Shown here piece after piece: positions 20,001-63,516 of a stretch of DNA of 64,000 nt (position 1 is its first letter; the number at the start of each line of letters is the position of its first letter). The notes beneath the pieces are model-generated. The model worked only from the letters and a program-made list of their open reading frames with translations. It had not been told where the DNA came from and ran no database searches. The DNA is from Hypanus sabinus (Eukaryota), in the NCBI RefSeq assembly GCF_030144855.1, contig NC_082711.1:148056001-148120000 (forward strand). Direction: 5' to 3'. The translations under genes and the position numbers were made by a program.

Positions 20001-23000
20001 GCCTTTATATTCAAGTGACAGCACAGCTTGCTAATTTAGCATTAGTGAGTTTTAGACAGAATCATGGTGATGAAACACATCAATTCCTGCAATGTGGAGA
20101 TTCTCCAATTTGCCGAGTGTCAACAGAAAATGCCACTTCATTGGCTCTTCGCTCAATCGTGGAACATCTGGACAGTGACGATGCATACATTGGGATTCTC
20201 TTCTTTGACTACAGTTCAGCTTTCAATACTATCATCACCTCACAACTAACCAATAACCCCCAAGACCCAGACCTCAAATGATTTCCTCACTTGAAGACCC
20301 CAGTCAGTTCAGATTGGCAACAACATCTCTTCCACAATCTCCATCAGCACAGGTACATCAGAAAACTGTATGCTTAGCCCCCTGCTCTACTCGTCTTACC
20401 CTTGTCTGTGAGGCTAAGCACACCTTTAATGCCATGTTTGTTTTCTGATGATACCACTGTCATTGGCCGAATCGAAGGTGGTGATGAATCAGCATATAGG
20501 AGGGAGATTGAAAATCTGTCTGAATGGTGTCAGCAAGACCAAGGAGCTGAATATTGACTTCAGGAGGAGGAAACCAGAGCTCCATGAGCCAGTTCTTATC
20601 AGGGGGTCAGAGGTGGAGAGAGACACATTAAGTGACTTGCTATTACTTCAGATGTGCAGTGGATAATATACTGACTGGTTGCATCACAGCCTGTCATGGA
20701 AACACCAATTCCCTTGAATGGAAAAGCCTACAAAAATAGTAGATACAACCCAGTCATCACGGGTGAAACCCTCCCCACCACTGAGCACATCTACGAGGAG
20801 TGCTGTCACAGAAAAGCAGCATCCATCAAGGACCTTCACCATCCAAGCCATATTCTCTTCTCACTGCTGCCAGCAGGGAGGAGGTAAAGAAGCCTTAGGA
20901 CCCAGGATCCACAGCACCATTTTCAAGAACAGTTATTACTCCTGAACCATAAGGTCCTTGAACCAGAGTGGATAACTTCACTCACCCCAACACTGAATTG
21001 TTCCCATAACCTATGGGCTCACTTTCAAGGACTCTTCATCTCAAGTTCTCGATATTGACTGCTTATTTATTTATGATTTTTTTTTTCTGTTTTGTATTTG
21101 CATAGTTGTCTTTTGCACACTGGTTGCTTGTCTCATTGTGTGTAGCTTTTCATTGATTTCTTTGTATTTTCTTTGTATTTACTGGGAATGCCTGCTTGAA
21201 AATCAATCTCAGGATTGTATATGGTGACATAAATTTACTTGAATGTTAACCAGTGCTTGTCCATCCAAATATTTATATATTCAGTCCCTTAGAATAATTT
21301 ACCTACTATTGATGGCAGGCTCACCAGCCTATTATTTCCTGGCTTATTCTGGGAGTCTTTCTAAAACAATGGAGCAACATTAGCTATCCTCCAATCCTCA
21401 AGCACCTCAACCATGGCTAAGGGCATTTTAAATATTTCTGCTAGGGGTCCTGCAATTTCTGCACTAGCCTCCCACAGGGTCCAAGGGAACAAATTATCAG
21501 GCCTTGGGGACTTATCCACCGTAATTTTCCTCAAGACAGTACACACCTATTGGGGTAAATACATATTGATACAAACGACATAGGCAGGAAAAGGGAGGAG
21601 GTCCTGAAAGCAGACTACAGAGAGTTAGGAAGGAAGTTGAAAAGCAGGTCCACGAAGATAGTCACCTTGGGATTACTGCCTATGCCACGTGACAGTGAGT
21701 ATAGGAATAGAGTGAGATGGGGGCAATGCATGGCTGAGGGATTGAAGCAGGGGGCAGGGATTCAGATTTCTGGATCATTGGGACCTCTTTTGGGGCAGGA
21801 GTGACCTGTACAAAAAGGATGGGTTGCATTGAATCCTAGAGTGACCAATATCCTGGCGGGGAGGTTTGCTAAGGATACTGGGGAGAGTTTAAACTAGAAT
21901 TGCTAGGGGGTGGGAACTGAACTGAAGAGATGGAGGAAGAGACACAAATAGTCCACAAATAGAGGAAGCTTGGAGACAGTGCGAGAGGGAGGATAGGCAG
22001 GTGATAGAGAAGGAATGCACTCAGACAGATGGTTTGAGATGCGTCTATTTTAATTCAAGGAGTACTATGAACAAAACGGATGAGATTAGAGGGCGGATCA
22101 GTACTTGGAGCTATGATGTTGTGGCCATTACAGTGACTTGGATAGCTCAGGGCAGAAATGGTTACTTTGAGTGCCAAGCTTTAGATGTTTCAGAAAGGGC
22201 AGTGAGGGAGGCAAAAGAGGTGGGGGTGTGGCACTGTTGATCATTGATAGTGTCACGGCTACAGAAACGGGGGAAGACATGGAGGGATAATCTACGGAGT
22301 CTCTGTGGGTGGAAGTTAGGAAGAGGAAGGGCTCAATAACACTACTGAGTGTTTTTTTTAAATACACCACCTGATAGTAACAGGAACATCGAGGAGCAGA
22401 TAGGGAGACAGATTCTAGAAAGGTGTAATAATAACAGAGTTGTCGTGGTGGGAGATTTTAATTTCCCAAATGTCGATAGGCATGTCCCTAGAGTGAGGGG
22501 TTTCAATGGAGTGGACTTTGTTAGCTGTGTTCAGGAAAGTTTCATGACACAATATGGAGATAAGCCTACTAGAGGAGAGGCTGTACTTGATCTGGTATTG
22601 GGAAATGAACCTGGTCAGGTGTCCGATCTTTCAGTGGGAGAGCATTTTGGAGATAATGATCACAATTCTATCTCTTTTACCCTAGCATTGGAGAGGGATA
22701 GGAATAGACAAGTTAGGAAAGCGTTTAATTGGAGTAAGGGGAAATATGAGGCTATCAGGCAGGAACTTGGAAGCATAAATTGAGAACAGATGTTCTCAGG
22801 GAAATGTACAGAAGAAATGTGGCAAATGTTCAGGGGATATTTACGTGGAGTTCTGCATAGGTACGTTACAATAAGACAGGGAAAGGATGGTAGGGTATAG
22901 GAACCTTGGTTTACAAAGGCTGTTGTAAGTCTAGTCAAGAAGAAATGAGCTTACAAAAGGTTCAAAAATCTAGGTAATGATGGAGATCAAGAAGATTACA

Positions 23001-26000
23001 AGGCTAGCAGGAAGGAGCTTAAGAAAGAAATCAGAAAAGCCAGAAGGGGCCATGAGAAGGCCTTGGAGGACAGGATTAAGGAAAACCCCAAGGCATTTTA
23101 CAGGTATGTGAAGAGCAAGATGATGAGATGTGAGAGATTAAGACCAATCAAATGTGACAGTGGAAAAGTGTGTATGGAACCGGAAGAGATAGCAGAGGTA
23201 CTTAATGAGTACTTTGCTTCTGTATTCGCTATGGAAAAGGATCTTGGCAATTGTAGGGATGACTTACAGCGGGTTGAAAAGCTTGAGCATGTAGATATTA
23301 AGAAAGAGGGTGTGTTGGAGATTTTGGAAAGCTCAAGTTGGATAAGTCACCAGGATGGGACAAGATGTACCCCAGGCTACTGTGGGAGGCGAGGGAGGAG
23401 ATTGCTGAGCCTTTGGCAATGATCTTTGCATCATCAGTGGGGACGGGAGAGGTTCCGGAGGATTGGAGGGTTGAGGATGTTGTTTCATTATTCAAGAGAT
23501 GGAGTAGAGATAGTCCAGGAACTTAATAGACCAGTGAGTCTTACTTCAGTGGTTGGGGTGTTGATGGAGAAGATCCTGAGAGGCAGGATTTATGAACATT
23601 TGGAGAGGCATAATATGATTAGAAATAGTCAGCATAGCTTTGTCAAAGACAGCACATGCATTACAAGCCTGATTGAATTTTTTGAGGATGTGACTATACA
23701 CATTGATGAAGGTAGAGCAGTCGACATAGTGTATATGGATTTCAGCAAGGCTTTTGACAAGGTACACCATGCAAGGCTTATTGAGAAAGTAAGGAGGCAT
23801 GGGATCCAAGGGGACATTATTTTCTAGATCCAGAACTGCCTTGCCCACAGAAGGCAAAAAGTGGTTGTAGACGGGTCATATTCTGTCTGCATAGAGGTCA
23901 ATGACCAGTGGTGTGTCTCAGGGATCTGTTCTGGGACCCCTACTCTTTGTGATTTTTATAAATGACCTGGATGAGAAAATGGAGGGATGGGTTAGTAAAT
24001 TTGCTAATAACACAAAGGTTGGGGGTGTTGTGGATAGTGTGGAGGGCTGTCAGAGGTTACAGTGGGACAGTGATAGGATGCAAAACTGGGCTGAGAAGTG
24101 GCAGATGGATTTCAACCCAGATAAGTTTGGTAGGTCAAATATGATGGCAGAATATAGTATTAATGGTAAGACTCTTGGCAGCGTGGAGGATCAAAGGGAT
24201 CTTAGGGTCTGAGTCCATAGGACACTAAAAGCTGCTGCGCAGGTTGACTCTGTGGTTAAGAAAGCATACGGTGCATTGGCCTTCATCAACCATGGGACTG
24301 AGTTTAGGAGCCATGAGGTAATGTTGCAGCTATGTAGGACCCTGGTCACACCCCACTTGGAGTACTGTGCTCAGTTCTGGTCGCCTCACTATAGGAAGGA
24401 TGTGGACACCATAGAAAGGATGCAAAGGAGTTTACAAAGATGTTGCCTGGATTGGGGAGCATGCCTTATGAGAATAGACTGTGTGAACTCGGTGTTCTTC
24501 TTTGGAGCGACGGAGGATGAGAGGTGACCTGATAGAGGTGTACAAGATGATGAGAGGCACTGATCATGTCGATAGTCATTCCCAGGGCTGAAATAGCTAC
24601 GCAGAGAGTGGTGAGTGCATGGAATGGGCTGCTGGCAATGGTAGTGGAGGCGGATATGATAGGGTCTTTTAACAGACTCCCAGACAGGTATATGGAGCTC
24701 AGAAAAATAGAGGGCTATGGGTGACCCTAGGTAAGTTCTAAGGAAAGACATGTTTGGCACAACTTTGTGGGGCAAATGGTCTGTATTGTGTTATAGGTTT
24801 TCTGTGTTTCTACCTCCTCCGATGTAATCTATACATGGTCCAAGGCCTCACTGCTGCTTTGCCTCTCTTCTATAGAGTATGTGTCCGTCTCCTGAGTAAA
24901 TACAGATGCAAAAAAAAAAATCACATTTTAGATCTTCCCCACTTCTTTCGGCTCCATGCATCGAAGACAACGCTGCGGAGCACTAGTTTTTCCCATGCTA
25001 TCTTTTTGTTCTTAATATCCATAAAAGCCCTTGAGATTCTCCTTCACCTCGTCTGCTAGAGCAACTTCATGCCTTCTTTTGTTCTCCTGATTTCCTTAAG
25101 TGTTCTCTTGCATTTCTTATACTCCTCAGTTATCTCATTTTCTCCTTCCTGCCTTACCTGCCATGGACCACCTTTTACTCAATTTCAGCTTTCACTTTTC
25201 TTTAGGTTTTTTCCCCCAAGTTGTTAATTTAAAGTTGATTATACAATCTAAAATATTGCAGGACAACTACTTAATTTCTTTCCTATTTGAATAATGCAAA
25301 CTCATTTTTTTGGCAATTCTCTATTTCCTTGCCATTTAGCTGTATTTCTGTAATTTCTATCATTGTTACTGGAGTTTTATTTCATATTATGTAGAGATTA
25401 ATAGAGTTCACTTTTTATTTTGCAACAAAATCTGATATCTGTAATATGATTTTCCCTATTTCTCCACAATTTTTGCCAGGAGCTCATAATTCAAGAAGTC
25501 AAGTTGTGTCAGATTAAATCCTCAGCAGATAAGGCTCATCCATTCATGAGAAAGTGACTTATTAAACTATGCAGCAGCTCGTAATTTCCACCAATTAACT
25601 GTACTGATATTAAAAAATACGATTTTTAAACTCAAGGCTTCCTATGAATTATATGCTAGAAACTTTGAACACCCATTCTCTTTGAATAACAACCTCCATA
25701 ATAAAATTGTACAAGTGATTCTAAATGAAGTGCACTTTCTTTGAGAAATGTAAGGCAAAGTATTAACACATTAATGAAAAATCCCACTAATTCAGCACTC
25801 TCAGGACTATGATGGTGACAAACAGATTTTCCAGATTATTGAATGTTACTGCATTAATATTCTAACATACTTGTAAAAAAGTTTAAGAAGATTTTACAGA
25901 AGAGTAGCATAAATTTTCCAGTAAACCTGGTAAGTTTCAAAGGAGGACAGAAAACAGAACCAAGTGAGCTTGAAGAAAGCTTGGAACCCCGGCACACCAT

Positions 26001-29000: not shown

Positions 29001-32000
29001 CTTTTTTTCGGAGTTCAAAATGTTTTTGTTGCATGCAGAAATGCAATTTCGTTTTCTCTGCAGGAGTTCATCAATTTCATAAATGCAACACATTATAGTT
29101 TGTTTATACATAGCATAAAGGCAAAACAAAACGTTGTATGCAGTGTTATTTCATTTTAAATGTCAAACGGGTTTTGCGGCTCCCAGTGTTTTCTTTTCTG
29201 TGGGAAACGGGTCCAAGTGGCTCTTTCAGTGGTAATGGTTGCTGACCCCTGGCCTAGACCCTGGCCCGACCTTTAACTCTCCCACATCCCTTTCCCTAAA
29301 ACCTAGTCTGACCACTAACTCTCCTCTCCGTCCCTAAAACCATCCCAACAAACCTAAAAAGCCACAAAACCTGAGCCACAACCTTGATGGTGACTGCAAC
29401 TCGGTGCTATCTTGACCAGAAATTCTCACAGTTCAAACATATTCAATAATCATAAGAAGCCATAACTAGTCAGAAAAATTGTAAAGAAACGTGAATGCAG
29501 TAACTAACTGATCTTACTTACCCCATAGGTGATGCACTGTATACAGTTCACCAATCTGCGAGAAGAAGCCACCAACTGCTTCATTGTTCTCTTGTCGAAA
29601 TCGAATGGCACGAGCCCTATGAAATATTAAATGATGCATTAATTTATTATTCATCATTATAGATAATTCAGATTTGAAGCAGTTATATTATAAATGTGAA
29701 TAATTGTTTCAATTTTGTTGAAAAAGACCTCTGAAAGTTGAAGATTGAATCACAAAATAATGATTAATAAATCCTAAAATTTTAATGATGGAAACTGATT
29801 ACACAAAGTTTCAGCTTATTCAACATGCAGTCATAATTATTTAGTTTTGCACAAATTAAAGTTTGATTCCTTTACACTAGTAACACTTTACCCAAACACT
29901 TACAGTATTTTAAATTCTGAATGAAGAGTAGTTGAAAAACCCAATGATTTTTCATTCAACCAAAATCCTCAAACATTAAAGCAGCTGCAACATTAAATTT
30001 TTAAACAGTTAAAACAGGACTTTCAACTTTGTGGCATACTTCAGTATAGATCCATATATTAACAGTTTGGTCATGTAAAATAGCAACTACATGTACGCTA
30101 AAATGTAAAATCACCAAGCTTTGAATAGAGCTAATCTAATGGTGGACTGTATTGTCAGCCATTAGATCACAGCTCTATAGACTTGCCAATTCCAGACAGA
30201 ATCAAAAAGTTTCCATAAACAACTCCATCCATAAATATGGCAGAGCTTTGCATGCATAAACAAATTCAGAGAATGCAATTAAAGAGATTGGTCCTCAGAC
30301 AATTTGATTCACTCCACTTAAAGAAACTGCTGAGTGCACTGCATTCATTAAAAAGCTTCAACCTAAATGAACACTGAATACTGAAGACTAATCTAGAATT
30401 AGTCATACCTCTACCCAAATAGTTCTAGTGACAGCTGAGTCATCTATTTGGAAAAATAGATTTATTTCCCAAGTATACCAAATTCATAACAAACAGGAGA
30501 AATTTAATCTGCCAATTGTCATTCCATTAGCCTACATTCATTTGTCAAAATGATGAAAGGAATGGTTGCTCATTCTATCAAGTAGCATTCACCAAACAAT
30601 AACATGCTAAACTCCAGAACCATTCAGATTTTGACCACTTTACAGCCTTAGTTCAAATATGGACAAAAGGACAGATATGAAAAAGTTAAGTGAAAGTGGC
30701 TAGCTTTGATATCATAAAATTATTAAACAGTATAATACAAGAAAGATTTGGTAAAATTAAAGTAATTGGGATTGAGGATAAACCATTCATTTGTTTGCCA
30801 TTAATATCATAAAGAAAGATGGCTTCTGTAATAATGGAAGCCAATAAATTAACCTTCAGGATTATACAGTATCAGGATTCCTCAGGGTTGTGCCATAGCC
30901 CCATACAACATTAGTAGCCATTTTAATAAACCATTCTTCCTAGTGTTACATGGGCTTGATTTCTATCATTAGCCTTATTTGCATTTCCTTTAAAGAATGA
31001 AGTAAAACAGAGTCAACATCCAGGCATAGGTTGGTAAGTGACAAATGATATTGAATTACACAAGCTTCAATCTAAAAGGAATGCTCAAGTACCTTCTGCA
31101 CATGAACAATAGGCAGGAAACTATTTGAGATAATTGGAAATACACAAAGAAATCCACATCCCATAAGTGATGCAAGCATTAAATAGACTAATAATTAGGA
31201 TTTATTTTTATTAGAATATGTACATGTTGGTCCTTTTTAATAACAGTGAAGGAATTTACTCTTAACCTTCTGCCTTTTGTTTAAAGAGTTTAGAGCAATT
31301 ATGCTTCTACTTACTTAAACCACATCTTGTTCTTCCTACCAAACAAAGTACTTTATTTCAGTTCTCTGCTTTAAATTTCATTTATGTTTACCCAACTCAC
31401 TAGTTTACTTATGTCTTCTTGCATTCTGTTATTAATTTCATTGTAACAGAATCGGACTTTTGTTTATTAAACAATATTTCTCCACTGCTGGTCAATAATC
31501 AAAAGAAAATTAAATTGCTTAGAATTTTATTCAAGGATAACGGTTGCTGGAATAACAGTCAGGTCATGTGATGAAGGTGACAGTCACACTATTTTACATA
31601 AAGATTGCCAGTACAGTAGATTTCAGTTAATTGGGTCATCGTTTAATCAGGACAACCACATATTTGGTAAAACTCTTGAAGAACATAAAGAAATTGAGTA
31701 AATCGCCAGGATTCCCTTAATGTATTTGGGACATTATGCCACCTAGTTGGGGCAGGAGTCCGTTGCCAAACAATTTCTAATTAGCATCAGTCGAGTGGCT
31801 ATTAGAGACTACACTGTGCTTACAGCAGTTTTTAAATAATGTCACTTGTGTGTTTGTGTTCAAAAAGCAATTATTTTTGTCACTAATAGTTGAATAAAGA
31901 GCAAGACAATTCAGAACTGTTTTATTCATTAAAGTTTCAAGCTTGAAGCTGCCAGTAACAGCCAGGAGTGAAAATGAAACAAGTTCACAATTTCTACAAG

Positions 32001-35000
32001 TTAAGAACCATGAAGAATTTGAAGGTATCAAGAACCATCTTGAATGTTACAACGAAAAAGATTTGGAGGATGCAGTCTTTGAAAACACTGCTTGAAGGCA
32101 ATCCACTATCTGCACTAGGTGTCTGCACTGGTTTTGTTCACTTACAGCCAATTAAAAGAACATGTTAGAATACACTGAATGAATTCCTCCATCAATAACT
32201 ACTAGGAACTAATAACAGTTTTATAGTACTGTAGTAGTTTTGGTTGTGTTCTAATTTATTCTGTATTTCAATTAAATGCATATATAAATAAATGGCAGTT
32301 TATCTTTTTTTTAAACACCTTTTCAACTATTTCCATGAAGCTGGCTAACTGGGCCAGCCACTTAATTGGGCCAAAATGTTCTGGTCCCAATGTGTCCCAA
32401 TTAACCTGACTCCACTGTATTTGGCACAATAAAGATTGGCAATATATTTCCATCAGGATGGAGTGGGGCTTGAAGGGGAACTGGCAGGTGGTATTTCTGG
32501 TGCTCTTGCTGCCCTTGTCCTCTAGATAGATAGTGGTTTTAGAAGGAGCTGACATAGAAACAGTTTTACATCACTGATTATACTCCCTCTTCCACTTGGT
32601 ATTTTTGAAAAGTGTGCAACATTTCAAACGATCAAATCCTACAGAACAATCACCAAAGCAAAATAGAATATTGCTGAAGATGATTGATCAAGTGGATAGA
32701 TACTTTATTGACCCCGGTGTCACAGTAGCATTACAAGTGCACAGATATACAAATATTAGAGAAGAAAGAAAGAATTTTAAGAAGTTCCCTCAAAAAGGGG
32801 GGGGGGGGGGTCATCACTTTCCTGGCTATAGGTTTATTCATTATAGAGCCTAATGGCCACGGGTAAAAATGACATCATATAGCACTCTTTGGAGCAGTGC
32901 AGTTGTCTTAGTCTATTCCTAAAAGTGCTCCTCTGTTCAGCCAAGTTGGCATGCAGAGGGTGTGAAACACTGTCCAGAATTGCCAGGATTTTCCGTAGGG
33001 TCCTTTGTTCTACCACAGCCTCTGGTGCGTCCAGTTTGACTCCCATAACAGAGCCAGCCTTTCTAATTAGTTTATTGAGCTTGTTGGCATCACCCATGTT
33101 GATACCATTGCCCCAGCACACCACCGCATAGAAGATTGTACAGGCAACAACAGACTGGTAGAACATGTGAAAGAGAGGCCTGCATACTCCGAAGGACCTC
33201 AGTACCCGCAGGAAGTAGAGGCCACTCTGGCCCTTCTTCTACTCAGCCTCTGTGTTGGTGCTTCACTTAAGTCCAGGTGCATCCCCAGGTACTTGTAGGT
33301 CCTCACCACATCCATGTCTTCATCATCAATAGTAACAGGGAGCAGTGCAGGCTGAGTCTTCCTAAAGTTCATCACCATCTCCTTTGCCTTACTGATGTTG
33401 GGGTGCAGATGATTCAGCTTGCACCATTTGACAAAGTCCTCCACCAGGGTCCTGCATTCTTCCTCCTGTCCTCCCTTTATACACCAAACTATTGCTGAGT
33501 CATCAGAGACTTACTGCAGAAGGAAGCAATGCTGCAAAGCCCATTTGGCCCATTGCATCCATCTTGGTGAAACAGAAGTAAAGATACTGTAACAGATTTC
33601 TGAAGGAGAGCAGGTCTCTTTTCAACAGAAAAAATATACTAACTTTCTTTACTGGGGTTATGCACTAAAAGGTGTGCTAAAAAATTCCTGCTGTATTACT
33701 AATACTTTTCCATGAACACATAATTCCATTATTATTCTGTAAAAAAGATCAAACTATAATTTACATTGTGATTTTGCAGCATTAGGATACAGCATTTAAG
33801 ATTCTGTTTTATGCTGCATCCTCAAACACATTTTGCCATACATTAGTTCTAACAGTGACACATTAATTATTCTAAATGATTAGAGAAACACAAAGTTTTT
33901 TTGCAGTAGAGATTACATCTATTAGCATAGTTATTCATTGTGTAATTCAACTAAAATTGAAACAACGAATATAAAACTATTATAGATTCCTTGCAGCCCA
34001 GCTAAACACATAATGGGGGTGGGGGAGAATAGACAATGAAGGTAATGGAGAAGACTGGAGAGTAATTCTGATGGTGGAAGAAAGGCAAACTCAAACATTA
34101 GGATTAAACACTATTGTGAACCAGTCTTTATTTATTGGGGTACAGTGCGGAGTAGGCCTTTCTGGCCCTTTGAGCCACATGCGCCCAGCAATCCCCCAAT
34201 TTTTTAATGCTAGCTTAATCACAGGGCAATTCACAATGACCAATTAACCTCCCAACTGGTTTATCTTTGGACTGTGAGAGGAAACTGGAGCACCCAGAGG
34301 AAACCCACATGGTCACAGGGAGAACATATGAACTCCTTACAGGTAGCAGCAACATGAATTGAACTCAGCTGGCCTGTACTGTTAAGCATTGTGCTATCAA
34401 CTATGCTATCGTGCCAACCCAATGTAAAATTACCTGTTATATTACCTGTAAGGGGTGGTTCTATCAGTTTATTTTTCAACATTAAACATTCTGAAAAATT
34501 TTGCAATGCAAGTTTCTGAAAGTGCAGGCAAATATATCAACTGGTTAAAGAAAACTAAGTAACGGAATAAACAGTTTAACTAATATTGAACGTTTTGAAC
34601 TAATGAGCCTTTGAATAAGTAATGGAGGCAATAAGCAAAATCTAAAGTTAACAATGATATAGAAAGAAATTATGTTGGATGTGAGAAGGAATTTGAGACA
34701 AAGTGGGAGTACAGAAAAGAATTAACTGTAAGCAATGTGGAAAATGACAGAAGGAACAAAGTTTTTTAAGTGAAACTAGAACCCAACTTGTCACAAGTGA
34801 CAAGTTGTTTTATTGGTCACTTAATAGCTGTTTGGCAAACTATTTCATTGTTAACTTAGTAAAAGCCTGAAAGACTAATACATCATACTGTGGATATATC
34901 CATTATTACACCTCAAAGTATTTTAACTTTTCTACTTACTCATTCCGAACCAATTCATTTAGGGCAGCTTTTTATCAAGAACAAACTTATTTATCTGCTG

Positions 35001-41000: not shown

Positions 41001-44000
41001 TCATACCAGCTGTCTCTTGTCAATCTGTCTGGTCCAGATGAAGCACCTTGACCCAAAATGTCTGATTGCTGAGTTCCTCCAGTGCTTTTGTGTGCTGCTC
41101 TTGATTGCCAGCACCTACACTCTTGTATCTCAAGTTTTAATTAACATGCTTTGCCATAATGCTAAAAAAAAGTCCTAACACATACAAATAAAATATTTAT
41201 ATAACTCGTACCAGCTTGATCCTGCTCTCCGTACCATGTATTCCATGTCCCTACGAGCTCACAAGGGTATTTGTCATCTTTGTGAATCTTCGGTAATACA
41301 TCTATGCTGCAAAAAAAAACAAGGAATGTTAATTGTAGACATTTTGTAACCTTTGCAATTTCTTAATATTCTAGTCCAATGGGCTAAAACCTTTGTCACC
41401 CAAAACTATATAGATCAGCGGCCTGCTTTTAGGAGAATATTTGGGAATATAAACTGCATCGGGATATCCACTTTGATTACACCAGCATGCTGCAGTACTA
41501 GTTTGTGTATTCAGTCTCCCTGCTTACTCTTTCTTCAAGCAATTCGCTCTAACAACTTGTGAGATTATTAAACTTTGACATGTTGATACTGCACTCCTAT
41601 GCCTGGATTCTTGAGTTTGGGATTAATGTGTTGACACAAGAAACAGAATTTTATTTAACTGGTGCATTTTCTGCAATATCAGAATTTTTTGAAGGATTCT
41701 TGTTTTAAGCAGACAACTTATTACTTTTGTTTTCAATATTTAATCTGCTTAAGTATACATAACAAATAATAACATACAAAGTCGAATTTTGGTATTGTAG
41801 ATTTTAGCTCATCTGTTTAATTACTGTACACACAATTACCCACAATCTTTAATATAGCTCATGAAGCAACTGTCTTAACTTAATTCTCAAACCCAGTATC
41901 AACTCTATTTTCTATATCTCTATTTAAACTGCCAATGTTTAACTGTCAATGAATCAGATTGCAAACAAGTTTATTCTTCTTAGCAAAGTAACTTTTAATG
42001 TGAACCATGACTAAAGTTGGGGGATATATTTTAGTCATTAATCATAGTAACTTTCAATTTTGTATTTCATTTGTAATTGGACAAGGGGATTAAATGTGGA
42101 ATTTGATACTTCGGTATTCTATTAGAAATATTTAATTAGGGATCCAGTATTTACTGAATACTTCTGGACTCTTGATGACTTTTGTGGGTTGGTGTTTTAT
42201 ATTTTGTGTTTTTTGCTCTTTTTCTTGCATGTTAGGGAGTGGGATTTGATGGTTTCTTTGAATGGGTCCCATGGTTTTCTGATTCGTGGCTCCCTGTGGG
42301 AAGACAAATCTCAGGGTTGTATACTGTGTATAAACTTTGAAAATAAATTTATTTTGAATCTTTCATGAAATGTTGATCAACTAGCTGACAGTGTTGGAAC
42401 CCATGTGGCATGGTAATACAAATTCTCTTCTACTTTCTGCAATTGCCTCCAGATATTGTCATTCTTAGGAGCAGGAAGTGGATGAAGGGCAAAATGGTAT
42501 TTTTTAAAAACTGGGTTTAGCAGGCACTGATATGCCTCGACACCTCATGCATTTCCTTAAACATCTATTTGATGCCATTTTTATTTTTACATCTAAAGGG
42601 TGAAATTTTTTTTGGAAATCAGATTTAAAGTTGAAATTATAGTGCAATATGTTGACCTTTTTGAAGTTCACCAATTCAAGGGGATGGGCCGAAAATTTTT
42701 AAAACAACTTCAGAGAAGACATAGTACAATAAAATGAGAACTGTATTAAGAAGTCTACACAATAAAACTATATATAAACACATTTAACATTTTCACACTC
42801 ATGATTCAACAAATGACTGGCTACTAATTTTATGCGGCAAAATAGCATTAAATCACCAAAATGTATTTTGGGAATTTACCAATCCAATGATGCTAACAAT
42901 ACTACAAAGGACATTTCCAAATGGTAAATAATGACCTAATACAAAGTTACCTCAGTTACCCTTATTAGAGGCTACAACCTATTCAAAATACAGTAAAAGC
43001 TGTATACAAGTTGTAAAAGCAAAATACACCAACCACAAATAAATTAGCTGCTCAGCAAGAGAACAGCAGTGTCAGATTCTGAGATAATATTGTTCCTGCA
43101 ATGTCAACAGATCTCATAATTGAGGGCGGCACAGTGGTGTGTCCATTAGAGCTGCTGCCTCACAGCATTAGAGACCCAGATTTAATCCTGACTGCACATG
43201 CTGTCTGCTTGGAGTTCGTGCGTCCTCCCTGTAATTGCCTGCATTTCTGCCAGGTACTCCAGTTTACTCCCATACTACAAAGTAGGTCAATTGACCATTG
43301 TGAATTATTCCTATCGTGAAGATCAGTGATAGATTCAGGAGAGAACTGAGGGGAATTTAGCGAGAATAAAATGGGATTCATGTAGGATTATTGTAAATGG
43401 GTGTTTGATGGCTGTTATAGACTGAGTGGCCAAAGGCCACACTGTCTATGAGACCCACTTTCTCATTAGAGGCAATCTAAGTATTGATTTGATTTGCTAA
43501 GCATTATTTTATAATGCTTCATTTTTGAAACTACTGGGGAGATTGCAATAAAACAAGGGTTAAAGACAATGGCCAGGCAAGCATAGCTGGGGGCAGTTGT
43601 GGTCAAGAGAGACCACTGAAAGCACCTCTGCCTACTACAGACAAGATAGCTGGGGATGACTGTGGCAATATATACTCAAGTCAGACGAGTGAGGTCTCTG
43701 TGAAACTTTTCTAGAAAGGCCTTTAAAAACAGAGCGCATCTTTACACAATATGGCATATACACCCAACATTAAGGGACAATTGCTTTAGTAACTACAAAA
43801 TATTATTGGCTGTCAGCTTGTAATTTTGATTAATTTTTCACACCTCTACTGTAAAAGGCTATTGACAAGCAAGGAGTTCAAACATACAATATACAAATGG
43901 CTTATATTCATAAATGATAAGCCTATTCTGTATAAAAATACAGAAAATGCTGGAGGAACTCAGAAGGCCAGGCAAAATCCATGAAAATGAACAAGCAGTA

Positions 44001-47000
44001 TCGTTTCGGCCCAAAAGCATGGATGCGACCTGACCATCTGAGTTCCTCCAGCATTTTGAGTATGCTGCTTTGGATTTCCAGCATGGGCAGAATCTCTTGT
44101 GTGCTGTATAAAAATAGCAGTTTTTTGTTCACACTTCAGAACAGTGTGGATGACAGGGGCCATGCTGTTCTCCTTATGCACAACTAAAATAAAAAAGATT
44201 GTGTGAGTCGTAAGAATGCATGTGTTTGGGCCCTGATACTTTATTATCAGTGAAGACAATCCTGTATAAAAAAAAAGTTCAGTAGGTGAGCAAAAGTTAA
44301 AAAAGGAAAGGACACAGGAAGAACAGGCAAAGTATAAAACTACCTCAGTTTTTGAAAAGAAACAACTAGCATCAGTCTGAGGATGAACTAGAAGCTGTAC
44401 CCCTGCTTTCCCACGCACAGTTTCAACAAGGCCCATGACAAGTGGCGCCTCCAACACTCGGTGAGGCTGGCATCAGTTGGCACCCAGCCACAGGCAGCAA
44501 TTACCAATAGCACTATGGGAGATGGAAGGTAGAGGCAATGAGCAAAATACTGATTTAAATGTATCTTGAACTGATCTAGTAGGAACTCTAACAAAATGTG
44601 TCTCTCACACTGTAGATTGGCATTAAAAAAAAGTATCGGACAGAAGACAATAATGTTAATGAATATGTAGAACTTGTGCGTAAGTGTTTTATAGTGTTCC
44701 AGGTTCATTTTAGAAGCAGTGATGTCCATCCTAATAAACTATTGTAAATAAATTGCAACATGCAAGTGTTTTACAATATTGCCAAAAACAATTGCAACAT
44801 CAAGGGATTAAAGCTGTTAAGGGGAATGGGGACAATACTTGTGACTGCCCCATTATAGCCTCTGGACAATATTGTATGTTGCTATTAAAGTATTGCGATA
44901 GCTGTCCTATATAATTTAACTGCTATTTTAACTTACAGTTCTGTTTTATATATAACTAAATTGACAGTAACCAAATTCAGGTTAAACATTACCTGTTTTA
45001 TACACATACAGCTCATGTGTTCCACTTATGACTGGTAATTTTTATTTTGAACAGTGTAGTTGTTTAGATAATATTATTCTAAATGTGAAGTAAATTCTAA
45101 ATGGGCTTTACAGTTCTTTGATCCAACAAATATAGAAATAGGACAGTGGACACAATAGGGGTAAAACATGTAAGTGTCTTCTAAGGGTATGCTTAGTTTG
45201 CAGACTGTCTGACCACTGGGGTTGAAGATGCCCTCAAGCCAAGGCAACTTTGATATCAGTTTCCACCCCCACTACCACCATTACCCATAGACTATGCAGT
45301 TAAAATAAGCTGTACACAGACTGTACTCAAGAAGTTGTGCGAGTCTAATTCTGACCACTGTAAAATGCCACCTGATGTACGCTCATATGCAACTTTTCTT
45401 TGATGGCTTTTCCTTCTGAGCTACTACTGGGGAAAAAAATCAGTAGAAAATTTTACTGGATATGTGGTGTGTGTACATCATATAACAGCTGAGGTGCCAC
45501 AGCCACCTTCAAGAATGGGAGATTCTCGCCCATAAGCAGCAACTGTATGATTTGTCAGAGACATAACCCCAAAAGTCACTGCCACCTATCCGCCACTGCT
45601 GGGCCCTGCTTGAGGAGGTTATTTTTACATTTCCCTATGGACTTTATGCAGTTGCCTAAATGTTTGGGTTGTAATTATGCACTTGTTATTTTGTTTGTTA
45701 TCTTCATAGGCAAAAGCTTATCCAACTCAGAGAAATGATATAGTAACTTTTGATTATTTTATTATGAGAATTTATTTCTTAGTTTGCAATCCCTGAGAAA
45801 AGTCTTGTGATAACTGCCCTCACTTTAGGAATAAAGTTATATTGGAATTAATATAAGCCTTATAGCATAAGCATAATTTCTCCTGCCCTTACTACCATTA
45901 ATCTTACAGGGCAGCTGAAAGACAGAACAGGGTGCTGAAAAACAGGTTAGCTAAATTGTGAAATGAGCTCAAGCTAAAATAGCCAGAAGCATGTCCACTG
46001 GCCCCTATGACAATGAGCTGCACTCCAAACTGCGTAACGCTCCTATCTCTGCATGAGATAGTTTTGGGACATCCCTTGTGCTTGACACTCATCTCTTTTT
46101 TAATGAAAAACAGACATCCATACTATGTGAAAGCATATTGCAGTATTGTACAGCACTAACACAAGCTCTTAGAGGTTCCTATCAACAGGTACTTGACACC
46201 CAGAAGAAATTGCTGGCTGCAGTATCAGCCCTACCATCCCAGAGACTGGGTACTGGAGAGAGCCTACAGATGAAAGAACTGTCTGGAACCCCACTATGAA
46301 GGTCCATCTCAAGTGTTGCTGACCACATTTACTGCTTTTAAGATCCAAGGAAAGCTGACTTGGATGCACATTAAGCCAGGAGTGCCACTGGACCGGGACT
46401 GATGGACTGAACTCTTCTTGATCTTTGCTATTTGCCACCTTAAATAGTATTATTTGTTTTGAGTGACCTGGACATCTAACTTCCACCTAAAGGCATAAGT
46501 AGCTCATCACAGTAACACTCCTAACATTTTCCCTCGCCTTAGCTTTGAATATGCATAGTATACACACTGGTCAGGTTGTTGGGTGCTCTCCAGAACGGGC
46601 CTATACATTCAGAAGGTGGTTTGTCAATGCCTGTATACCCCTGGATAGTAATGAGTTTGGTTCTGTGTTTTACTTTGATAACAGAATGAGAATTGTATGG
46701 GACAACATTGCCCATAGAAATGAATCTTACCAATACAACTGTTTTGAAGGAGAGAACAAACCTATTTATAATGGTTGCATAAACCCCCTGCTCTGGTGCT
46801 GCTTCTTGGGTGAAGTATATTGGTACGACCATCAAGGGATGGGACTAGACTTGGGTAACAGTACATGCAATATCTATATTACTAATGACTCTCCAAATGC
46901 CATTAATGGTGTTTACTAGTTAAGTCGTCGACAGGCCTATCACTGGCTGCCAGGGGTACCTCTTCAAAATGTGATCTTTGGCCTGAACCAAACCCATGGA

Positions 47001-50000
47001 GAGGTCATTGTTATCTGGCCTATGTAGTACCATAGATGTTCCATCTGCCCACTCTCTCTCTCTACATCCTATTGTGTGGAGCTGCCATCGAAGGACTATG
47101 GAAACTGAGTGTGTCTGGATTGTAATGTGCCTGTTCTGGAAACCTGCCAGAGTAGCTTGTGAAAGCATTAACTTGGTCATAGCATTGCTGGAGAAATTGG
47201 CCACCACCATAGTCTTAACACTACACAACAAGAACCAGGCCATCAATGACATTACTGCCGAAATGCTGGCAAACCACATTGTGGCCCCAAAATCAAACTT
47301 TGATAATAAATTTCGTTGAACTTGAAAGTACATATATGTCACCATATACAACCCTGAGATTCATTTTCTTGCAGGCATACACAATAAATCCATAATTGAA
47401 TAACTAAAATAGAATCAAAGAAAGACCGCATCAACTTGGGCATTCAACCAGTGTGCAAAAGAAAACAAACTGTACAAAAACAAAAAGAAAGAAATAATAA
47501 TAAATAAATAAGCAATGAATATTGAGAACATGAAATGAAGAGCCCTTGAAAGAGAGTCCATAGGTTGTGGGAACACAGGATGGGGCAAGTGAAGTTGAGT
47601 GAAGTCATCTCCTTTGGTTCAAGAGCCTGATGAATGAGAGATAATAATTGATCATGAACCTGGTGGTATGAGTCCTGACGATCCTGTACCTTCTTCCTGA
47701 TGGTAGCAGCGAGAAGAGAGCATGTCCTGAGTGGTGGATGCTGCTTTCCTGCGACAATGCTTCATGTAGATGTGCTCAATGGTGGGGAATGCTTTACCTG
47801 TGATGGACTGTGCCGTATCCACTACTTTTTGTAGGATTTTCCATTCAAAAGCATTAGTGTCCATACCATCCTGTGGTGCAGCCAGACAATACTCTTCACT
47901 ACACACCTATAGAAGTTAGTCAAGCTTTAGATGTCATACCAAACTCTTCACAACTTCCCAAAGAAGCAGAGGTGCTGTTGTGCTTTCTTCATAATTGCAC
48001 TCATGAACTAGACCCAAGACAAGTCCTCCGAAATAATAATACTGAGGAATTTAGAGTTACTGACCCTCTCCACCTCTAACTCTCCAATGAGGATTGGCTC
48101 ATGGACCTCTAGTTTCCTCCTCCTAAAGTCAATAATCAGCTCCTTGGTATTGCTGACATTGAGAAAGAGGATGTTGTTATTTGCATCGCTCAGCTAGACT
48201 TTCAATCTTCCTCCTTCTAGCACTAGACTTGCTATTATTAAAGAGAGGTGGTGCTTGTGCCATTATTAGCTAGGCATGTTGCTTGTGTGTTTCTGATATC
48301 AACAGCCAAGTATCCCTGATGAAACTATCACAGGGTTTCAGAGATTCTGCATTCTTGAAATTTACTAAGATCTACATTGTCCTCCACTGGACAAAGAGGA
48401 GGAAGTGTAGAAGTTGTCGTAAGGCAACGGTTAAAGATAACATCTAGGCAATAGTACTAATGGGGCAGTAGTGGTCAAGTGAGACCACCGTAAACACCTC
48501 TGCTTATGACAGACAGGCAGGGGTGACTGCAGCAGTGTGTACTCAAGCCAGACAAGTGGTGCCTCTGTAGTCAGACATTTCTAGAAAGGTCTTACTGAAA
48601 CAGTCTCCCTTTACACAAGAAGGGATGCCAGAGACAGACGAGACAAGAATAACAGAAGTACGTGAAATACACCCAACCAATAAGGAACAATTTCTTTACT
48701 AATTTCAAAATGTCATTGGTTTTCAGCTCAAAGTCAGATTAATGAATATTGTGATCAATATCCACAACTGATAAGCTAATTCTGTATTAAAGACAGCAGT
48801 TTTCTGTTTAGTCTTCAGAACAGTGTGGGTGACAGGAGTTATACTGTTCTCCTTGTGCAGAGCTAAAATAAAAAGAATGTTTAAGTTATAAGTGTGTGCA
48901 TTCTGGGTACAGTTACTTTAGTTATTTTGTTTTATTATTGGTGACGAACAAGCAAGTGCTCTTGTACCTGATAAATGATGTAGCCATCAGAAAATAAATC
49001 TTCAGTTTACAATATAACAAAGAATTCAATGCCATTTTAAATTATAAATCATGGACAAATGTACAGTGGTTCATATCTACCTCAGTTTTGTTGGCACACC
49101 TAATTAGCATACCAACACTCAGCTATATGAATAGATACAAATCCCAATCTTTGTGCATGCAATTTTAAACACAGAAATCTTGAACTCAGAGAATGAAAGA
49201 TAAGCCAAATCAATGCTTCACGTTGATCACCACTGAGGATATTGGACATTAGTTAGGAAGCAGATAGGAAAGGGTTTTTCTAATGTTCTTAAGCAAGGGT
49301 CTCAGTCCAAAACGTCGACTGTACTTCTTCCTATAGATGCTGCCTGGCCTACTGTTCTCCACCAGCATTGTGTGCGTGGTGCTTGAATTTCCAGCATCTG
49401 CAGATTTCCTTGTTTCATATTTGTTGCATATTCTTGTTTCATTTTTCTAATTTTTAAAAAAATAGGAATTTTAATTTTTCAATTATTTATTTCAGTTTTG
49501 TTTCTCAACATCCTTGTAATTCAGCATTCAGAGTTGCCCTGCTTCACCAGCTATGTAAATCTATCATATTATTTTAGGGGTAAGTCTCTGATCTATACCA
49601 TCTGTGGTCTCCCTGCCACCTGGATCTCACCACTCTAAGAGAGCAGAATGCCAACAATACATGCCTTTAATATCAAGCTTAGAAGAGTACAGGCTTTTTG
49701 AAACCAAAGGCTACAAGTTCAGGCAGCAGACAGCAAACAACATGATCAAGCCAGAAGTATCTCAGGTTAGTATGATCACATTATTTTTATCAAAATAAAC
49801 TTGAAATTACCTGAATGCTAGCTACAGATTGTTAAGCAGATTATGCACATCAGGTCAAGCCTTTCTTCATTCAAAAATAAGAATATTTATTCCTGGACAC
49901 TTTTTCTAATACAACTACTGGTACTTCATAAATAGTTCCAATCCCTTTAGCTAAAGTAATAAATAACTAACATAAGAGATTTTTTTTTAAAGTGCTACTG

Positions 50001-52865
50001 GCTGTTAATCATTTAGAAGATTAAAAATACGGTATTTTGGAGTAGTATTATGCACATTCTGCCACAGCTTAAATGAAGACAAATTTCTAAGATGAAAGAT
50101 CAGTAAACTGAGAAATAGGTGAACTTCAGGTAATCATACATTTCTTTAGCCAAAATAACTTAAGAGATTGAACTTTATCTTACCAAAGCTTGTTGTAAGC
50201 CTCTAGGGATTCTGGTTTTACACTGTGAACTGGAAAGAAAATGTTTACAGTTAAACTGGGAAATTCTTTGAAAATAAGGCATCCCTTAACAGACCAGAAG
50301 ACACTGTGAATACTTACATTGAATTTTGTATAGGCTGCTTGTTTCTTTTTTAGCTAGCAAATTTGAATGAGCATCTTTGCGTGGATCCACCTTTCTGACA
50401 AACAGCGATTTAAACCAGCTATCCTCCCTGTTGTTGAATGAAGTTGCAGACAATGCCCTGTATAGAAATGTGAACAATTACCTCAGAAAGAAATTGGGAG
50501 CATGGCTACTTATTTTTTGGACATTGTTTATTAGGTTAATCTTTATTTCCAAGCCCAAATTTACCCGGATAGTACGTATCAGCAGCTAATTATGATAATT
50601 CCTAGAGAGGGTGCAAATAATATTCTCGAGAATATTTCCAGGGATGAGGAAGTGAGTGAAGAATAAATTGGAAACTAAAGATCTACATCACTGCAAAACA
50701 ATTATCCCTCCTTTTCCCCATTCATGATGTCTTCAAGCTTAGATAGGTTGACCACGTCATCCTTCTCCAAAGCCTCTACACCTTCAACCATCCAGATAGG
50801 AGCACATCAACTGGCTCCATTCTTATTTAGCCAGAGGCAGAGAATTACAAGCAAAGTCTTTCTTCTTCCGTAACTACATCATTACCTTTAGTATCATAGA
50901 ACAGAACCAAACACAGATCTTCGCATTTTTCATCCACATCCCATAACATAGCAACATAGCTGAAAAACATATGCATGCTGACACTCAGTTTTATCTAAAC
51001 ACCGCCTCTTTTAACTATTATCTCCAATGATGATTTAAACCTTTTTTTACGTTTCCTGCAATGCTGTGAAGACCAAAACCGTAGCCTATTATTTGTCACA
51101 AACTCAAAACCCTAATCACTGACTCCTTTCCTGTTATTTTTTTTAAATTGAGTGACAATGCCCAAAATCATGGTGTAACATCTGATTGGGCTGTGCTTCA
51201 GTCAATGTATCTAGGCCTCCATTAGTCTCGATAGACCATGGATTTGCATCGCAGAGCAATGTGTGGTTAAGTGCCTTGCTCAAGGAAACGCACGCAGCCT
51301 CAGCCAAGGTTCGAACTAGCAACCTTCAGATCACTAAACAAACACCTTAACCAACTGGCCATGCGCCAACACAGTCCATGTACACATGTAATCAAACTAT
51401 TTCTTCTTCTGGAACACTTCTCATGCACTTCTCAATACTATTGCAACCTCAACTCATCTTGTAATGCATTTGTTATTATTACCTATTGACTTAACTATTC
51501 CAATGTATTCCACATCAATTACTTCCATTCTACTCTTGTTAAGTCTCTGCTCTAGTGGAGCCAACGTACTCTTTTCTATTGACCATCACCCTCATACTTG
51601 GTGACTTACATTAATTCTCAATGAATCAGTTTTAAAATTCTTATCCTCAATTTCAAATTTCTCCATTGGCTTCCTCCCTATATTCTTCCTGTCCCAAAAT
51701 TTTTAGGTATCTGTAATTCTTTCATATGTATAAGACTATAAGGTACTGGAGCAGAAGCAGGCCATTCAGCCCATTGGGTCTGCTCTGCCATTCAGTCATG
51801 GGCTGATCTAACTCTTCCAGTCATCCCCACACCATTTAATGCCCTGGCTAATCAAGAACCCATCTATCTCTGCCTTAAATGCACCCAATGACTTGAGCTC
51901 CATAGTCACCCATGGCAACAAATTCCACAGATTTACCACCCTCTGACTAAAGTAATTTCACCACATCTCTGTTCTAAATGGATGTCCTTCAATCCTGAAG
52001 TCATGCCCTCCTGTCCTAGACTCCCCTACCATAGGAAAAAGCTTTGCCATATCTAATCTGCTCAGGCCTTTTAACATTCAGAATGTTTCTCTGAGATCCC
52101 CACTCATTCTCCTGAATTCCAGGGAATACAGCCCAAGAATGCCAGACATTCCCGGTAACCCTTTCATTCCTAGAATCATTCTCGTGAATCTGCTCTGAAC
52201 CCTCTCCAATGTCAGTACATCCTTTCTAAAATAAGGAACCCAAAATTGCACACAATACTCCAAGTGTAATCTCACGAGTGCCTTATAGAGCCTCAACATC
52301 ACATCCCTGATCTTATAATCTATACCTCTAAAAATGAATGCCAACATTGTATTTGCTTTCTTCACCATCAATCTCAATCTGGAGGTTAACCTTTAGTGTA
52401 TCCTGCACATCCCAGCATGCGAAGACTGCTTCGGTGGATCAGGTGGAGGAGACCCGGGGGTTCAATGGCTGAGAAGGTATTGCAGCAGTGCACTGTGGTG
52501 TGGCAGAGCACTTAAGAAGAAGAGGCCATCCATTACAGCCAAGGAAGTTGCCAGGCGTAACGATTCTTCGTGTCACTGGATCCTGACTTCTGAGTTCAAG
52601 AGAGGAGGATCGTCTCTGTGCATGGCTTTTCCACTTTAGTAGCTTTCACCACCGGTTACATTGGGCAAAAAAAAAAGGTTGGCTGGTAGCACAGTGAAAT
52701 CAGTGCTGGGCTCGAGAACAGAGGTTCCTGAGTTCAATCCAGTGACAGGCCGCTCCTGAGTACGCTCTCTATCCGTGCTGCGTTGACGTCGAGCTCGCAA
52801 CTTGGCCTCGTAAAAAACACTGCCAACCTGCACAATGTATTCTTCCTCGTACCCCGAGAGACAAC

Positions 52866-60215: not shown

Positions 60216-62754
60216 TGTAAGGGGGTTTCTTCTTGGTGTAAGGGGGCTTCTTCTTTTTCTTTGTTACTGCGTATGTTAATCAAAATGGCTTCTTTGTTTT
60301 GTTAAAAGTAGGAATGCTTCTTTGTTATGATAAGTGCTTTCTCTCGCAGCTTGTTTGGGTTAAAATTTACTGATAACGAGAATTGTGTTCGTTTGTTAAC
60401 CAATTGGGATGGAGGTTATTCCTTCTTGTGGGTCTGTAAGCTATTGTTGGTGGGCTTTTGGGGAGTCGGCATGAGGGGGTGAGAGAGGGAGGACGTGATG
60501 CTGTAAGCTGGGCAACGGAACAGACCCCGAGCGAGGGTCCAAGGCCAGGGTTTTCGGCGAGGCTAGGGGACAAAGACAGATGTGCTGGGGGTGCTGGTTG
60601 ATCACTTTGGGTGGTCCTGAGCTATGAGTCGAGGAGGTCTGAGGGGATTGAATGGTGGCCAGAAGACTTTGTTAATTGAGCTCCAACGGTTGTGCATGAA
60701 GTGGTTTGGACTTTGATATGTTTGGCGCCTTTTCTTTATTTTCATTTCCTTCATAAATACTGCATCGTTTTTAATCACTTAGTTCCAGTAACATCTATAA
60801 AGTGTAATCATTTAATCGCATATGGTGTACAGTCTGTTATTTGGTGGGTTGGGGACATCACACAGCATCCACACAAGCTGGCTACCCAGTCTGGCAGGGC
60901 TGAAGGCTGCTCCCTCTAGACGGAAGCAAGCTGAGTGAGCCTGAGGCGAGCCAGGGGGCTACATTGTGCGTGCTCATCTGGGATTGAAATTCTGTGGAAT
61001 TCTGTGTGATCGCCCTCTTTAAATTATGTAGGCTGCGGGGATGGAAAGCTGGTGTGCGATTGTTGGTTATCACTGCATGCATGTTGGGTGGGGTGGCGGG
61101 TGGTACCCCGGAGGTCGTTGTTCGAGTTCAGATTAGTGCTGACGAAATGGTGGTGGGACCATGGGCTGTCCATACTGTTAAGAGAGAGGGGAAGGACTGG
61201 TGTTCCAGCTATGGCGGGCTCCGCCTGGTTGTTGGAAAAGTGTCCAGCCCTAAAAGGGTGGAGGCGTGGGCGGAGCGGACCTCTCAGTTGTTAGGTGAGT
61301 GGCAGTGCTTGGCTGAGGGAAAGTGACAGGGATTGGTTGGAAGTTTGAGTAGGCCGGCTGGTGACGTTGTCAGAACTGTCTGGTACGATTACCTCGGAGT
61401 GACAGCTGCCAGTAATGGGAAAGTGTGGGAAAATGCATTTGGTTCGACTGGAAGTCAAATGCCGCAGCTGGAGAGCTTACCATATCTGTGGCAGGAGATT
61501 GGTGGAAAGTTTTCAGGGTATCTTCTTTGGCTAGGGGGACAGATAAATTGGTTGTGGTGCCATGGGGATCTGTCAAGGAAATCAGCTACTCTCTCAGTTG
61601 TTCAGTTGATCTGAGAGGTGTCGGGAAACTTAGAGGAGGCCCAGTGGGGAAACGGCTTGGAGTCATATTCCCGGCAATGTACCAAGGAACTCCCGAAAGG
61701 AACAGACCCTTTTCCTGAAGGCGTAGAGGGACCACGCACTTGGGTATTATTACGGATGGATGGAAGCCACGCTAAAGCAATCCTCAACACCTGGGCGCAG
61801 GTCAAGTTGCTGTACAGTTCGTTTTACAACCGGTATTGGAAGCATTTACCCTTGACGACATTGAGGGCACTGGAGATTTGGGTTACCAGTGCCAGTGATT
61901 ATCCAGATGACAGTTATTGGTCAGAGAAAGTGGAGTTCTTAGAGGCCAATGTGAGGGTACCTGAGGTTCGTGAATCATTAATGCTGATGTGTCCGGATAC
62001 TGTTGAGACGGGCAGCGTTTCGATTCTGGAGGATTGGTGTGGAGGAGCATGGGGGCCTGCCAGGAGGAGGCGGGTGAAAGCTGTTTGGAGACATTGACTG
62101 TACACCCCGTGAAAGCTACTTGTGAGGATTTGTGTAGCAGCCGAGGGCTGGTACTGAATTCAAATGAGAGTCGGTGCTGGTACGGCCTGGGGGAAGTATC
62201 TGAGGTGAGACCCTCTTAGTGGACGCTCTGAAATACCACGAGGGAGGGGATCTGACCACTGAAGACACCTACCGAGAGGTTGTGGCGACTGGCCCTGGCA
62301 GCCGTGGAAGACGTAGGCAGCGTGTGTGTGGAGTATAATGCGCTGAAGAGGCGCACCTGTCACTGACCAGAATACGGCCCTGAGGGCCGAAGAGGCAATG
62401 ACCTGTCTGAGTGGTGCAAAGTGGCTTAAGGCGCTGGATCTGAGGAGTGGATGTTGCCAGATGCCGATGAGTGAGGCCGACAAGGAGAAGATAGCCGTTA
62501 TAGGTCCCCTAGGATTCTTCCGGTCCGAAAAGATGCCACAGGGCATATCTGGAGCCCTTGCAACCTTCCTGTGGGGCGTGGGGAAGACCTTGGGGGATGT
62601 GGGGATGTTTGGAGTTTTGGCGTATGTGGATGATCTCATGGTATTTGGATCTGCCTCAGAAGAATCTGAAGTGAGACTGTTGCAGGAGCGGCTGAGAACT
62701 AAAGAGCGAAAGCTTTCTCTGGACATGTGGATTGAGGCTTACCAGGGGGCTACA
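60216..62754 (+). mobile_element. Gypsy/Ty3 LTR retrotransposon with PNMA-like gag; internally deleted, 3' LTR reduced to about 22 bp
   Basis: 4-bp TSD CCAC; 5' LTR 60216-60963 (TGTAA..CTACA); gag [27 protein letters not shown]; protease ILNTWAQV; RT LDLRSG..MPQG..YVDD. Confidence 0.9.
60967..60984 (+). other. Degenerate tRNA-Pro primer-binding site of the Gypsy element
   Basis: TGCGTGCTCATCTGGGAT vs TGGGGGCTCGTCCGGGAT, 14/18 identical, 3 nt after the LTR end. Confidence 0.65.
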
Positions 62755-63516
62755 CCACCATGCTACTGAGCTGCCCAGTTTCAATCACCCTTCCTCAGAG
62801 CTGAAGGATCATTGATTTAAAATGTTAATGGGTTTTACTTCCACAAATGCTGAATTTTTCCAGCATTTCTATTTTTACTTCATATACTATTATGGACCTT
62901 GTTGCCAGCATGCATCTCCAAATAGTCACTTATTTTCAGCCAGTCTCCAGTTAATTGATGACATTTTTTGGAATATGGTGGCAGGTGCTAGATTTCCTTG
63001 ACTTCATGTCTCAATATTGTTAGATTGTTCAACTGTGAGAAACCTCTTTGATTTACCACGATTTACTTATAAGAAAGAAGTTTTATAAAACTGCTACCTG
63101 ATGGAGTTGTACAATGGAGTTGTACATAGTAATTTTTCTGTAAATTTCAAACTTATTCTGGTTCTAAAGGGTTATATTAAACAGCATGATGATATAGAAC
63201 TTCAGAAGTCCAAAGATTGAACAAGGCTTATTTTTAAAACAAAAATACCTTCCCAGTTTGGCAGCTTTGTGATTGAAGACAATATTCAACTAAGCCATTT
63301 CAACTGATTTCTTAATGAAAAACTTATAAATGCCCAGGAAAAACACAAAAAGGAACCATAGCTTTCAACACTTATATATATTGCCTATACAACATAGCTC
63401 TTCCTTTGTTCCATTTAATATGTAGTTAGCAAAGCCTTTTCCAACAGTATGATTAAAATACTAGATCTCTAGACTTAGGTTCACATTACCTTTGGAAGTT
63501 ACCTCACATAGATGAC

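Follow-up and report, generated by a model that had tools for sequence, protein, structure and literature searches.

Shared protease and reverse transcriptase deletion in an old endogenous retrovirus family of Hypanus sabinus and the probable spread of its defective copies by complete sister viruses

The element at 43535..48950 of a 64,000-nt stretch of Hypanus sabinus DNA (contig NC_082711.1, positions 148,056,001 to 148,120,000; the whole stretch is called the window) is a dead class I endogenous retrovirus (ERV), which lies antisense within an intron of a NIPSNAP gene. It belongs to a sub-lineage in which the protease (PR) and reverse transcriptase (RT) were removed by one shared deletion, and this sub-lineage was probably multiplied through packaging and copying by complete sister viruses with the same long terminal repeat (LTR). 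The initial annotation, which had described an ancient env-bearing provirus, missed the gag remnant joined to RNase H with about 2.3 kb gone, as well as the membership of this copy among many equally old ones.

Shared deletion and three tiers of copies

The junction between the gag end and the RNase H start lies at 45290..45375 of the window (plus strand), where about 2.3 kb containing the protease, RT and connection is gone. In searches that covered the 4.04-Gb genome and gave lower bounds for all copy numbers, this junction was bridged in one alignment by 36 of 40 loci (the best 40 of 154 candidates scored). Since the junction was common to these loci, the deletion predates the amplification. 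Among the fetched loci, 24 of 25 (window included) matched the RT-bearing sisters up to the end of gag and then RNase H within about 100 nt, while 2.3 kb or more separated the two in the RT-bearing sisters; L128 was matched on the gag side only. The PR and RT of the RT-bearing copy L062 matched none of the 13 short copies. The search for fuller copies proposed by the initial annotation, performed with a repeat removed from the query, yielded 11 RT-bearing sister loci, with all 11 candidates scored, and the same LTR was carried by L062, L133/134, L135, L137, L142, L143, L147, and L148.

The distance from the immunosuppressive domain (ISD) of the transmembrane protein (TM) to the polypurine tract (PPT) was 132-157 nt in 10 of the 13 short copies, the other three falling short of the PPT, compared with 381-420 nt in four RT-bearing copies and 293 nt in a fifth RT-bearing copy, whose ISD match was weak. 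The TM anchor was found downstream at 7 of the 40 junction loci and at 7 of the 11 RT loci. Among the matches listed, the anchorless TM was found at 9 of the 40 junction loci and at none of the 11 RT loci, and the anchorless form had 90 search candidates against 39 for the form with the anchor. Three tiers were therefore present within one LTR family, namely RT-bearing copies, copies without PR-RT but with the anchor, and copies without both, which include the window copy.

In the integrase DNA tree, 14 copies without PR-RT formed a star that was split from the RT-bearing side with support of 100/100. On the RT-bearing side were L157, which is RT-less, and L053 in the integrase tree and L156 in the env tree. 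The placement of L157 and L156 suggests recombination between the lineages and so their co-packaging. L156 also repeats a stretch of gag after env.

The LTR search gave 67 matches at 68-82% besides the window's own (the best 40 of 1024 candidates scored), and those of the fetched loci (20 integrase-matching loci and L021) that had both LTRs were colinear with the window element. The median LTR divergence (K) was 0.238 within elements (n=10) and 0.259 between elements (168 pairs), a similarity that a single old burst would produce, and all inspected copies were about equally decayed. The same genome has younger class I ERV families (L071-L080) with long open frames and LTR-sized repeats of 91-95% identity. 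Tandem or paired near-identical matches to the family were observed at G000:C18:140302865-140310110, at 88.26 and 88.46 Mb of C16, and at 41.91 and 42.28 Mb of C87; these pairs are likely local duplications, and a few of the counted loci are therefore not independent insertions.

Spread of the shortened lineage

In the proposed course of events, a defective master would have kept its cis signals, and helper particles would have supplied Gag, RT and integrase in trans, with the defective RNA being packaged, reverse-transcribed, and integrated by the helper integrase. The tiers would have arisen stepwise, the TM anchor being lost later in one branch, and the amplification would represent one old burst. 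Paired LTRs, a primer-binding site (PBS) for tRNA-Gln in the sisters, the PPT, and 4-bp target-site duplications (TSDs) in some copies were all observed in the family. The RT-bearing copies shared both the LTR and the level of divergence with the short copies and were presumably competent in the past.

The PBS of the sister copies was complementary to the 3' terminus of tRNA-Gln from the same genome, with 18 of 18 positions matched in L092 and L094; when up to 4 mismatches were allowed, it was present at 15 distinct sites. The window copy has lost its PBS. Clean 4-bp TSDs were found in L003 and L016 among the 10 loci surveyed, and by eye in L065 too. The terminal CA of the LTR was separated from the PBS by 6 nt in L092, L094, L147, and 12 more sites, in RT-less and RT-bearing copies alike. 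This gap is 3-4 nt in three younger ERVs of the genome (L072, L074, L078) and 2 nt in the textbook arrangement, and the 6-nt gap may imply a longer overhang trimmed by the integrase. No information on this spacing was found in PMC2664473.

Several observations weigh against copying by the sampled sister viruses. Complementation in trans cannot be observed in dead copies, and all those inspected were decayed. Of the junction loci, 24 of 40 were on neither TM list (among the matches listed), and the short copies were not resolved as a clade in the env tree. The copy L053 (G000:C18:103918000-103927999) is without PR-RT yet has gag, integrase, and TM anchor of the RT-bearing type, and therefore the region was lost more than once. 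The gag of the short lineage aligned only partly to that of the sisters (58-69%), and its integrase differed from theirs at 72 of 592 columns, so that the true helper may be an unsampled relative. The flanks of the window copy had no TSD (CTAC at one end and AGCA at the other), and of the other loci surveyed for TSDs, three gave no ends, one gave one end, and four were mismatched.

A two-component system, in which the RT-less lineage still had functional genes for Gag, integrase, or Env during its spread and aided the RT-bearing lineage by complementation instead of being purely its parasite, is improbable. Its gag, RNase H, integrase, and env were kept in order, the anchor was retained at some of the junction loci as described above, and the lineage-specific differences in integrase were distributed as 32/24/15 over the three codon phases, all of which would fit such a system. 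However, the codon-phase test was not significant for integrase (p=0.12) or env (p=0.80), and a lineage without the 5' part of pol had no evident route to make integrase. Two small gaps of 2 and 1 nt, in a region of ambiguous alignment, were common to the integrase of the short copies, and the greater number of search candidates belonged to the anchorless form.

It is also unlikely that the window element is chimeric, either joined from two insertions or recombined later, in which case the divergence of its LTRs would date no single event. The missing TSD would agree with this, as would the finding that the two window LTRs (K 0.23-0.26) were no nearer to each other than to the LTRs of other loci (0.16-0.36), but a burst would also give equal distances. 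The internal order of the element was fully colinear with that of the other two-LTR copies, and both flank-LTR junctions were present in organism C. There is still less to be said for separate deletions in inserted copies, segmental duplication, or copying driven by long interspersed nuclear elements (LINEs) as the origin of the short form. Deletions after insertion are common in the family, the window copy having two and L053 having lost a similar region, but such origins are opposed by one junction shared by 36 of 40 loci on many contigs, the unrelated flanks, the two full LTRs with a PBS, and the star-like integrase tree, and the shared junction with distinct flanks already refutes them for the most part.

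Beyond the spread by complete sister viruses, one may picture a Mesozoic or older pair in cartilaginous fish, in which an RT-less lineage persisted beside its helper until the two were about 12% apart in integrase, exchanged sequence with it by recombination, came to exceed it in number, and lost the Env anchor as a second step, possibly after first supplying Env or Gag; we regard this fuller history as rather doubtful. If true, a defective virus that overtook its helper would be documented in a very old fossil record, together with an unusual 6-nt gap that separates the LTR from the primer site.

Retroviral class and known relatives

From its sequences, the family is placed among the class I retroviruses (gamma/epsilon-like). 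The integrase remnant of the window (45535..46390, plus strand) contained stops and frameshifts, with CxxC at 45544 and the catalytic D,D(35)E residues at 45640, 45809, and 45917, and it matched an open-frame ERV integrase in tblastn (E 3e-22). Its C-terminal domain of the murine leukemia virus (MLV) type at 46229-46372 matched Pfam MLVIN_C above the cut-off (E 9.4e-9). Besides MLVIN_C, Pfam searches of the whole window frames gave only a weak ALKBH8_N match in an insert, and the window integrase had no protein homologue among the longer proteins searched. In the integrase tree, the family formed one clade (100/100) among integrases bearing MLVIN_C, and nine relatives at 26-29% without MLVIN_C fell apart from it; P0006 and P0008 were too short and were left out of the tree.

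The D,D,E and C-terminal motifs described in the initial annotation were thus recovered, but of the zinc finger it had listed, just the CxxC half remained. The HH half was lost together with most of RNase H, as about 490 nt were missing at 45510/45535 in comparison with the sisters. RNase H and env, which it had also named, stood largely through the colinear sisters. RNase H gave no significant match in the window alone, and its start (45350..45510, plus strand) was identified by RNase_H in L046 (E 3.5e-5). For env, TLV_coat was not significant in the window (E 0.03) and reached E 0.002 in L053 and L065; all of these scores were below the cut-off. The surface protein (SU) of env had no Pfam match. 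The ISD and CX6CC motifs of TM were present in the window, although the ISD was split by the insertion at 47299..48208. The gag remnant matched the gag of L053 (tblastn E 1.4e-6), and the window has a CCHC knuckle at 45190-45231; zf-CCHC reached E 0.0012 in the sister L137.

The window itself has no RT, and the sister RT (L133) was closest to the RT of the type of MLV and xenotropic MLV-related virus (XMRV) (E 4e-22), followed by the foamy type (1e-10), HIV-2 (6e-4), and Ty3 (0.07-0.37). The sister TM matched gamma-type ectodomains, including syncytin-1 (E 5e-5) and filovirus GP2. Because the sister RT was closest to MLV/XMRV, the integrase carried MLVIN_C, and the TM was of the gamma type, the family was assigned to class I and not to Gypsy, as the initial annotation had proposed from the integrase C-terminus and the TM. 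There is next to no likelihood of an env-bearing Gypsy (Metaviridae) element: the order of RNase H followed by integrase, which is common to Gypsy, would fit, but the far nearer match of RT to MLV/XMRV than to Ty3, the MLVIN_C domain with its place in the integrase tree, and the gamma-type TM oppose it. The RT lay outside the Ty3/Gypsy group, and the RT and TM results refute a Gypsy origin. The nearest database RTs were turtle and teleost ERV pol proteins (P0019, P0020, P0021, P0023), 51-57% identical to the sister RT, while the younger ERVs of this genome reached 41-42%. Since the RT tree gave no resolved sister relationship, we do not link the family to turtles.

Class I ERVs with gamma-type Env have been reported from six cartilaginous fishes, three of them with over 500 copies (10.1101/2021.11.23.469661). 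The present family is like the fish gamma-type class I ERVs in the ISD and CX6CC of TM, the MLV-like RT and integrase C-terminus, and the order LTR-gag-pol-env-LTR. It differs in that most of the copies found here were without PR-RT, and in that the anchor, present in all representative Envs of that survey, was absent from one tier (10.1101/2021.11.23.469661). The LTR divergence of 0.24-0.26 also contrasts with 0.024-0.033 in the two complete CmiERVs (CmiERV II/III; PMC4422223).

The kind of element and its architecture are already known from mouse and cattle. Mouse intracisternal A-particle (IAP) I-delta-1 has a 1.9-kb gag-pol deletion, depends on proteins supplied in trans, and is behind most of the new insertions (PMC1331978); it is class II, young, and active, whereas the family here is class I, has lost about 2.3 kb, kept env, and is dead. 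In the C and D types of cattle ERVK[2-1-LTR], in MusD/ETn, and in koala retrovirus (KoRV)/recKoRV, competent copies are outnumbered by defective ones (15% against 85% in cattle), which retain the LTRs and the gag/env flanks and recombine with the helper (PMC10924933); they exchange the centre for foreign DNA, whereas here the centre was deleted, at most about 100 nt were unassigned at the junction, and the TM anchor was lost second. No account of this family turned up in our literature search, which did not extend to Repbase, Dfam, or the supplements of the anamniote env survey, so that it is only possibly the undescribed family suggested in the initial annotation.

The value of the family is that of a fossil, with LTRs 8-11 times as diverged as in the two complete elephant-shark ERVs (PMC4422223) and far more diverged than in the younger ERVs of this genome. 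The full, PR-RT-less, and anchorless tiers allow the cattle model, in which defective copies displace their helpers, to be examined in deep time.

Age, outline and surroundings of the window copy

The two colinear LTRs reported in the initial annotation were confirmed as very diverged. Their identity was 0.781 over 425 aligned sites, with 54 transitions and 39 transversions, and their local alignment score was 111 compared with a maximum of 31 among 200 shuffles; a count by eye reproduced 24 identities in the first 36 nt from 43535/48406. The Kimura two-parameter distance was 0.263±0.029, or 0.227 with CpG sites masked. This corresponds to 227-263 million years (My) at 0.5e-9, the rate assumed for catshark in the part of the source available (PMC10699275), to 114-132 My at 1e-9, an illustrative value and not a published rate, and to 52-60 My at the mammal rate of 2.2e-9. 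A further published rate of 2.2e-10 per year, given with the mammal rate (PMC4422223), was rejected, as the resulting 516-598 My is older than the jawed vertebrates. The rate for the epaulette shark, expressed per generation, was left out of the conversion to years. The family is likely unusually old, with an absolute age of about 50-260 My depending on the rate.

Contigs of six organisms (C, E, F, I, J, and K) matched the element at 1-12% difference. The flank-LTR junctions were bridged in C (both) and J (3'), and that of the env insertion in I and J; orthology in E, F, and K rests on the low divergence of internal pieces. The LTR pair was about three times as diverged as the orthologues of I and J, which differed by 6.1-8.5% in the element and 4.5-7.2% in the flanking intron. 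Since the divergence of the element was no lower than that of the intron, no constraint was evident. The element thus serves as the orthologous marker it had been proposed to be but hardly as a datable one, as the rates span 52-598 My and the TSD is missing. With their nested insertions and deletions, the orthologous copies serve as presence/absence markers and could be used to calibrate the neutral rate of the host, given the impossible age obtained here from one published shark rate.

All retroviral parts of the window copy are on the plus strand. The 5' LTR (43535..44258) and the 3' LTR (48406..48950) start with TG and finish with CA, like those of the sister copies by which the ends were set. 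The 5' LTR is broken by a later high-copy short insertion with internal inverted arms (43941..44103, no strand assigned) and a 13-nt duplicated target (43928-43940 and 44104-44116); a further copy of this repeat lies at 49290-49415. Sister copies keep the PBS and a leader stretch of about 0.5-0.7 kb, both of which are missing in this copy at 44259..44287. This leader deletion was bridged in C and F, while in I, J, and K the contigs start at 44288, which weakly suggests a recent deletion. The decayed 5' internal region with the gag remnant (44288..45300) includes a capsid-like stretch at about 44480-44700. The env remnant with SU and the first part of TM up to the ISD (46400..47298) is colinear with the sister env at about 62-78%. 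It is followed by a high-copy insertion of about 0.9 kb on the minus strand (about 47299..48208), which we take to be a LINE 3' fragment, and by the remaining TM (48209..48392) with the ISD end and CX6CC (48256-48282), which is without the membrane anchor and about 240 nt shorter than in the RT-bearing sisters. The PPT noted in the initial annotation is the purine run at 48393..48405. Once inserted, the copy was likely subject to neutral drift, in the course of which two insertions were acquired and two stretches were lost.

The host gene is on the minus strand, with sequence matches for the exons upstream (50184..50229) and downstream (about 41212..41306) of the element and Pfam NIPSNAP matches at 29520-29630 and 18889-18975. 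We take the paralogue to be NIPSNAP2 and, following the numbering of the human gene, the two exons to be 3 and 4 and the intron to be intron 3. No role of the element within NIPSNAP is indicated. A NIPSNAP match over the whole domain, without introns and with stops, at G000:C36:43742220-43742660 is likely a processed pseudogene. Open frames at 22349-23827, 10177-10680, and 32834-33238 of the window resemble what we presume to be LINE endonuclease/RT fragments. Protease-like and RT-like frames (YVDD) at 61615-62769 belong to another LTR element, presumably Gypsy by our own reading, whose RT was placed far from that of the present family in the tree.

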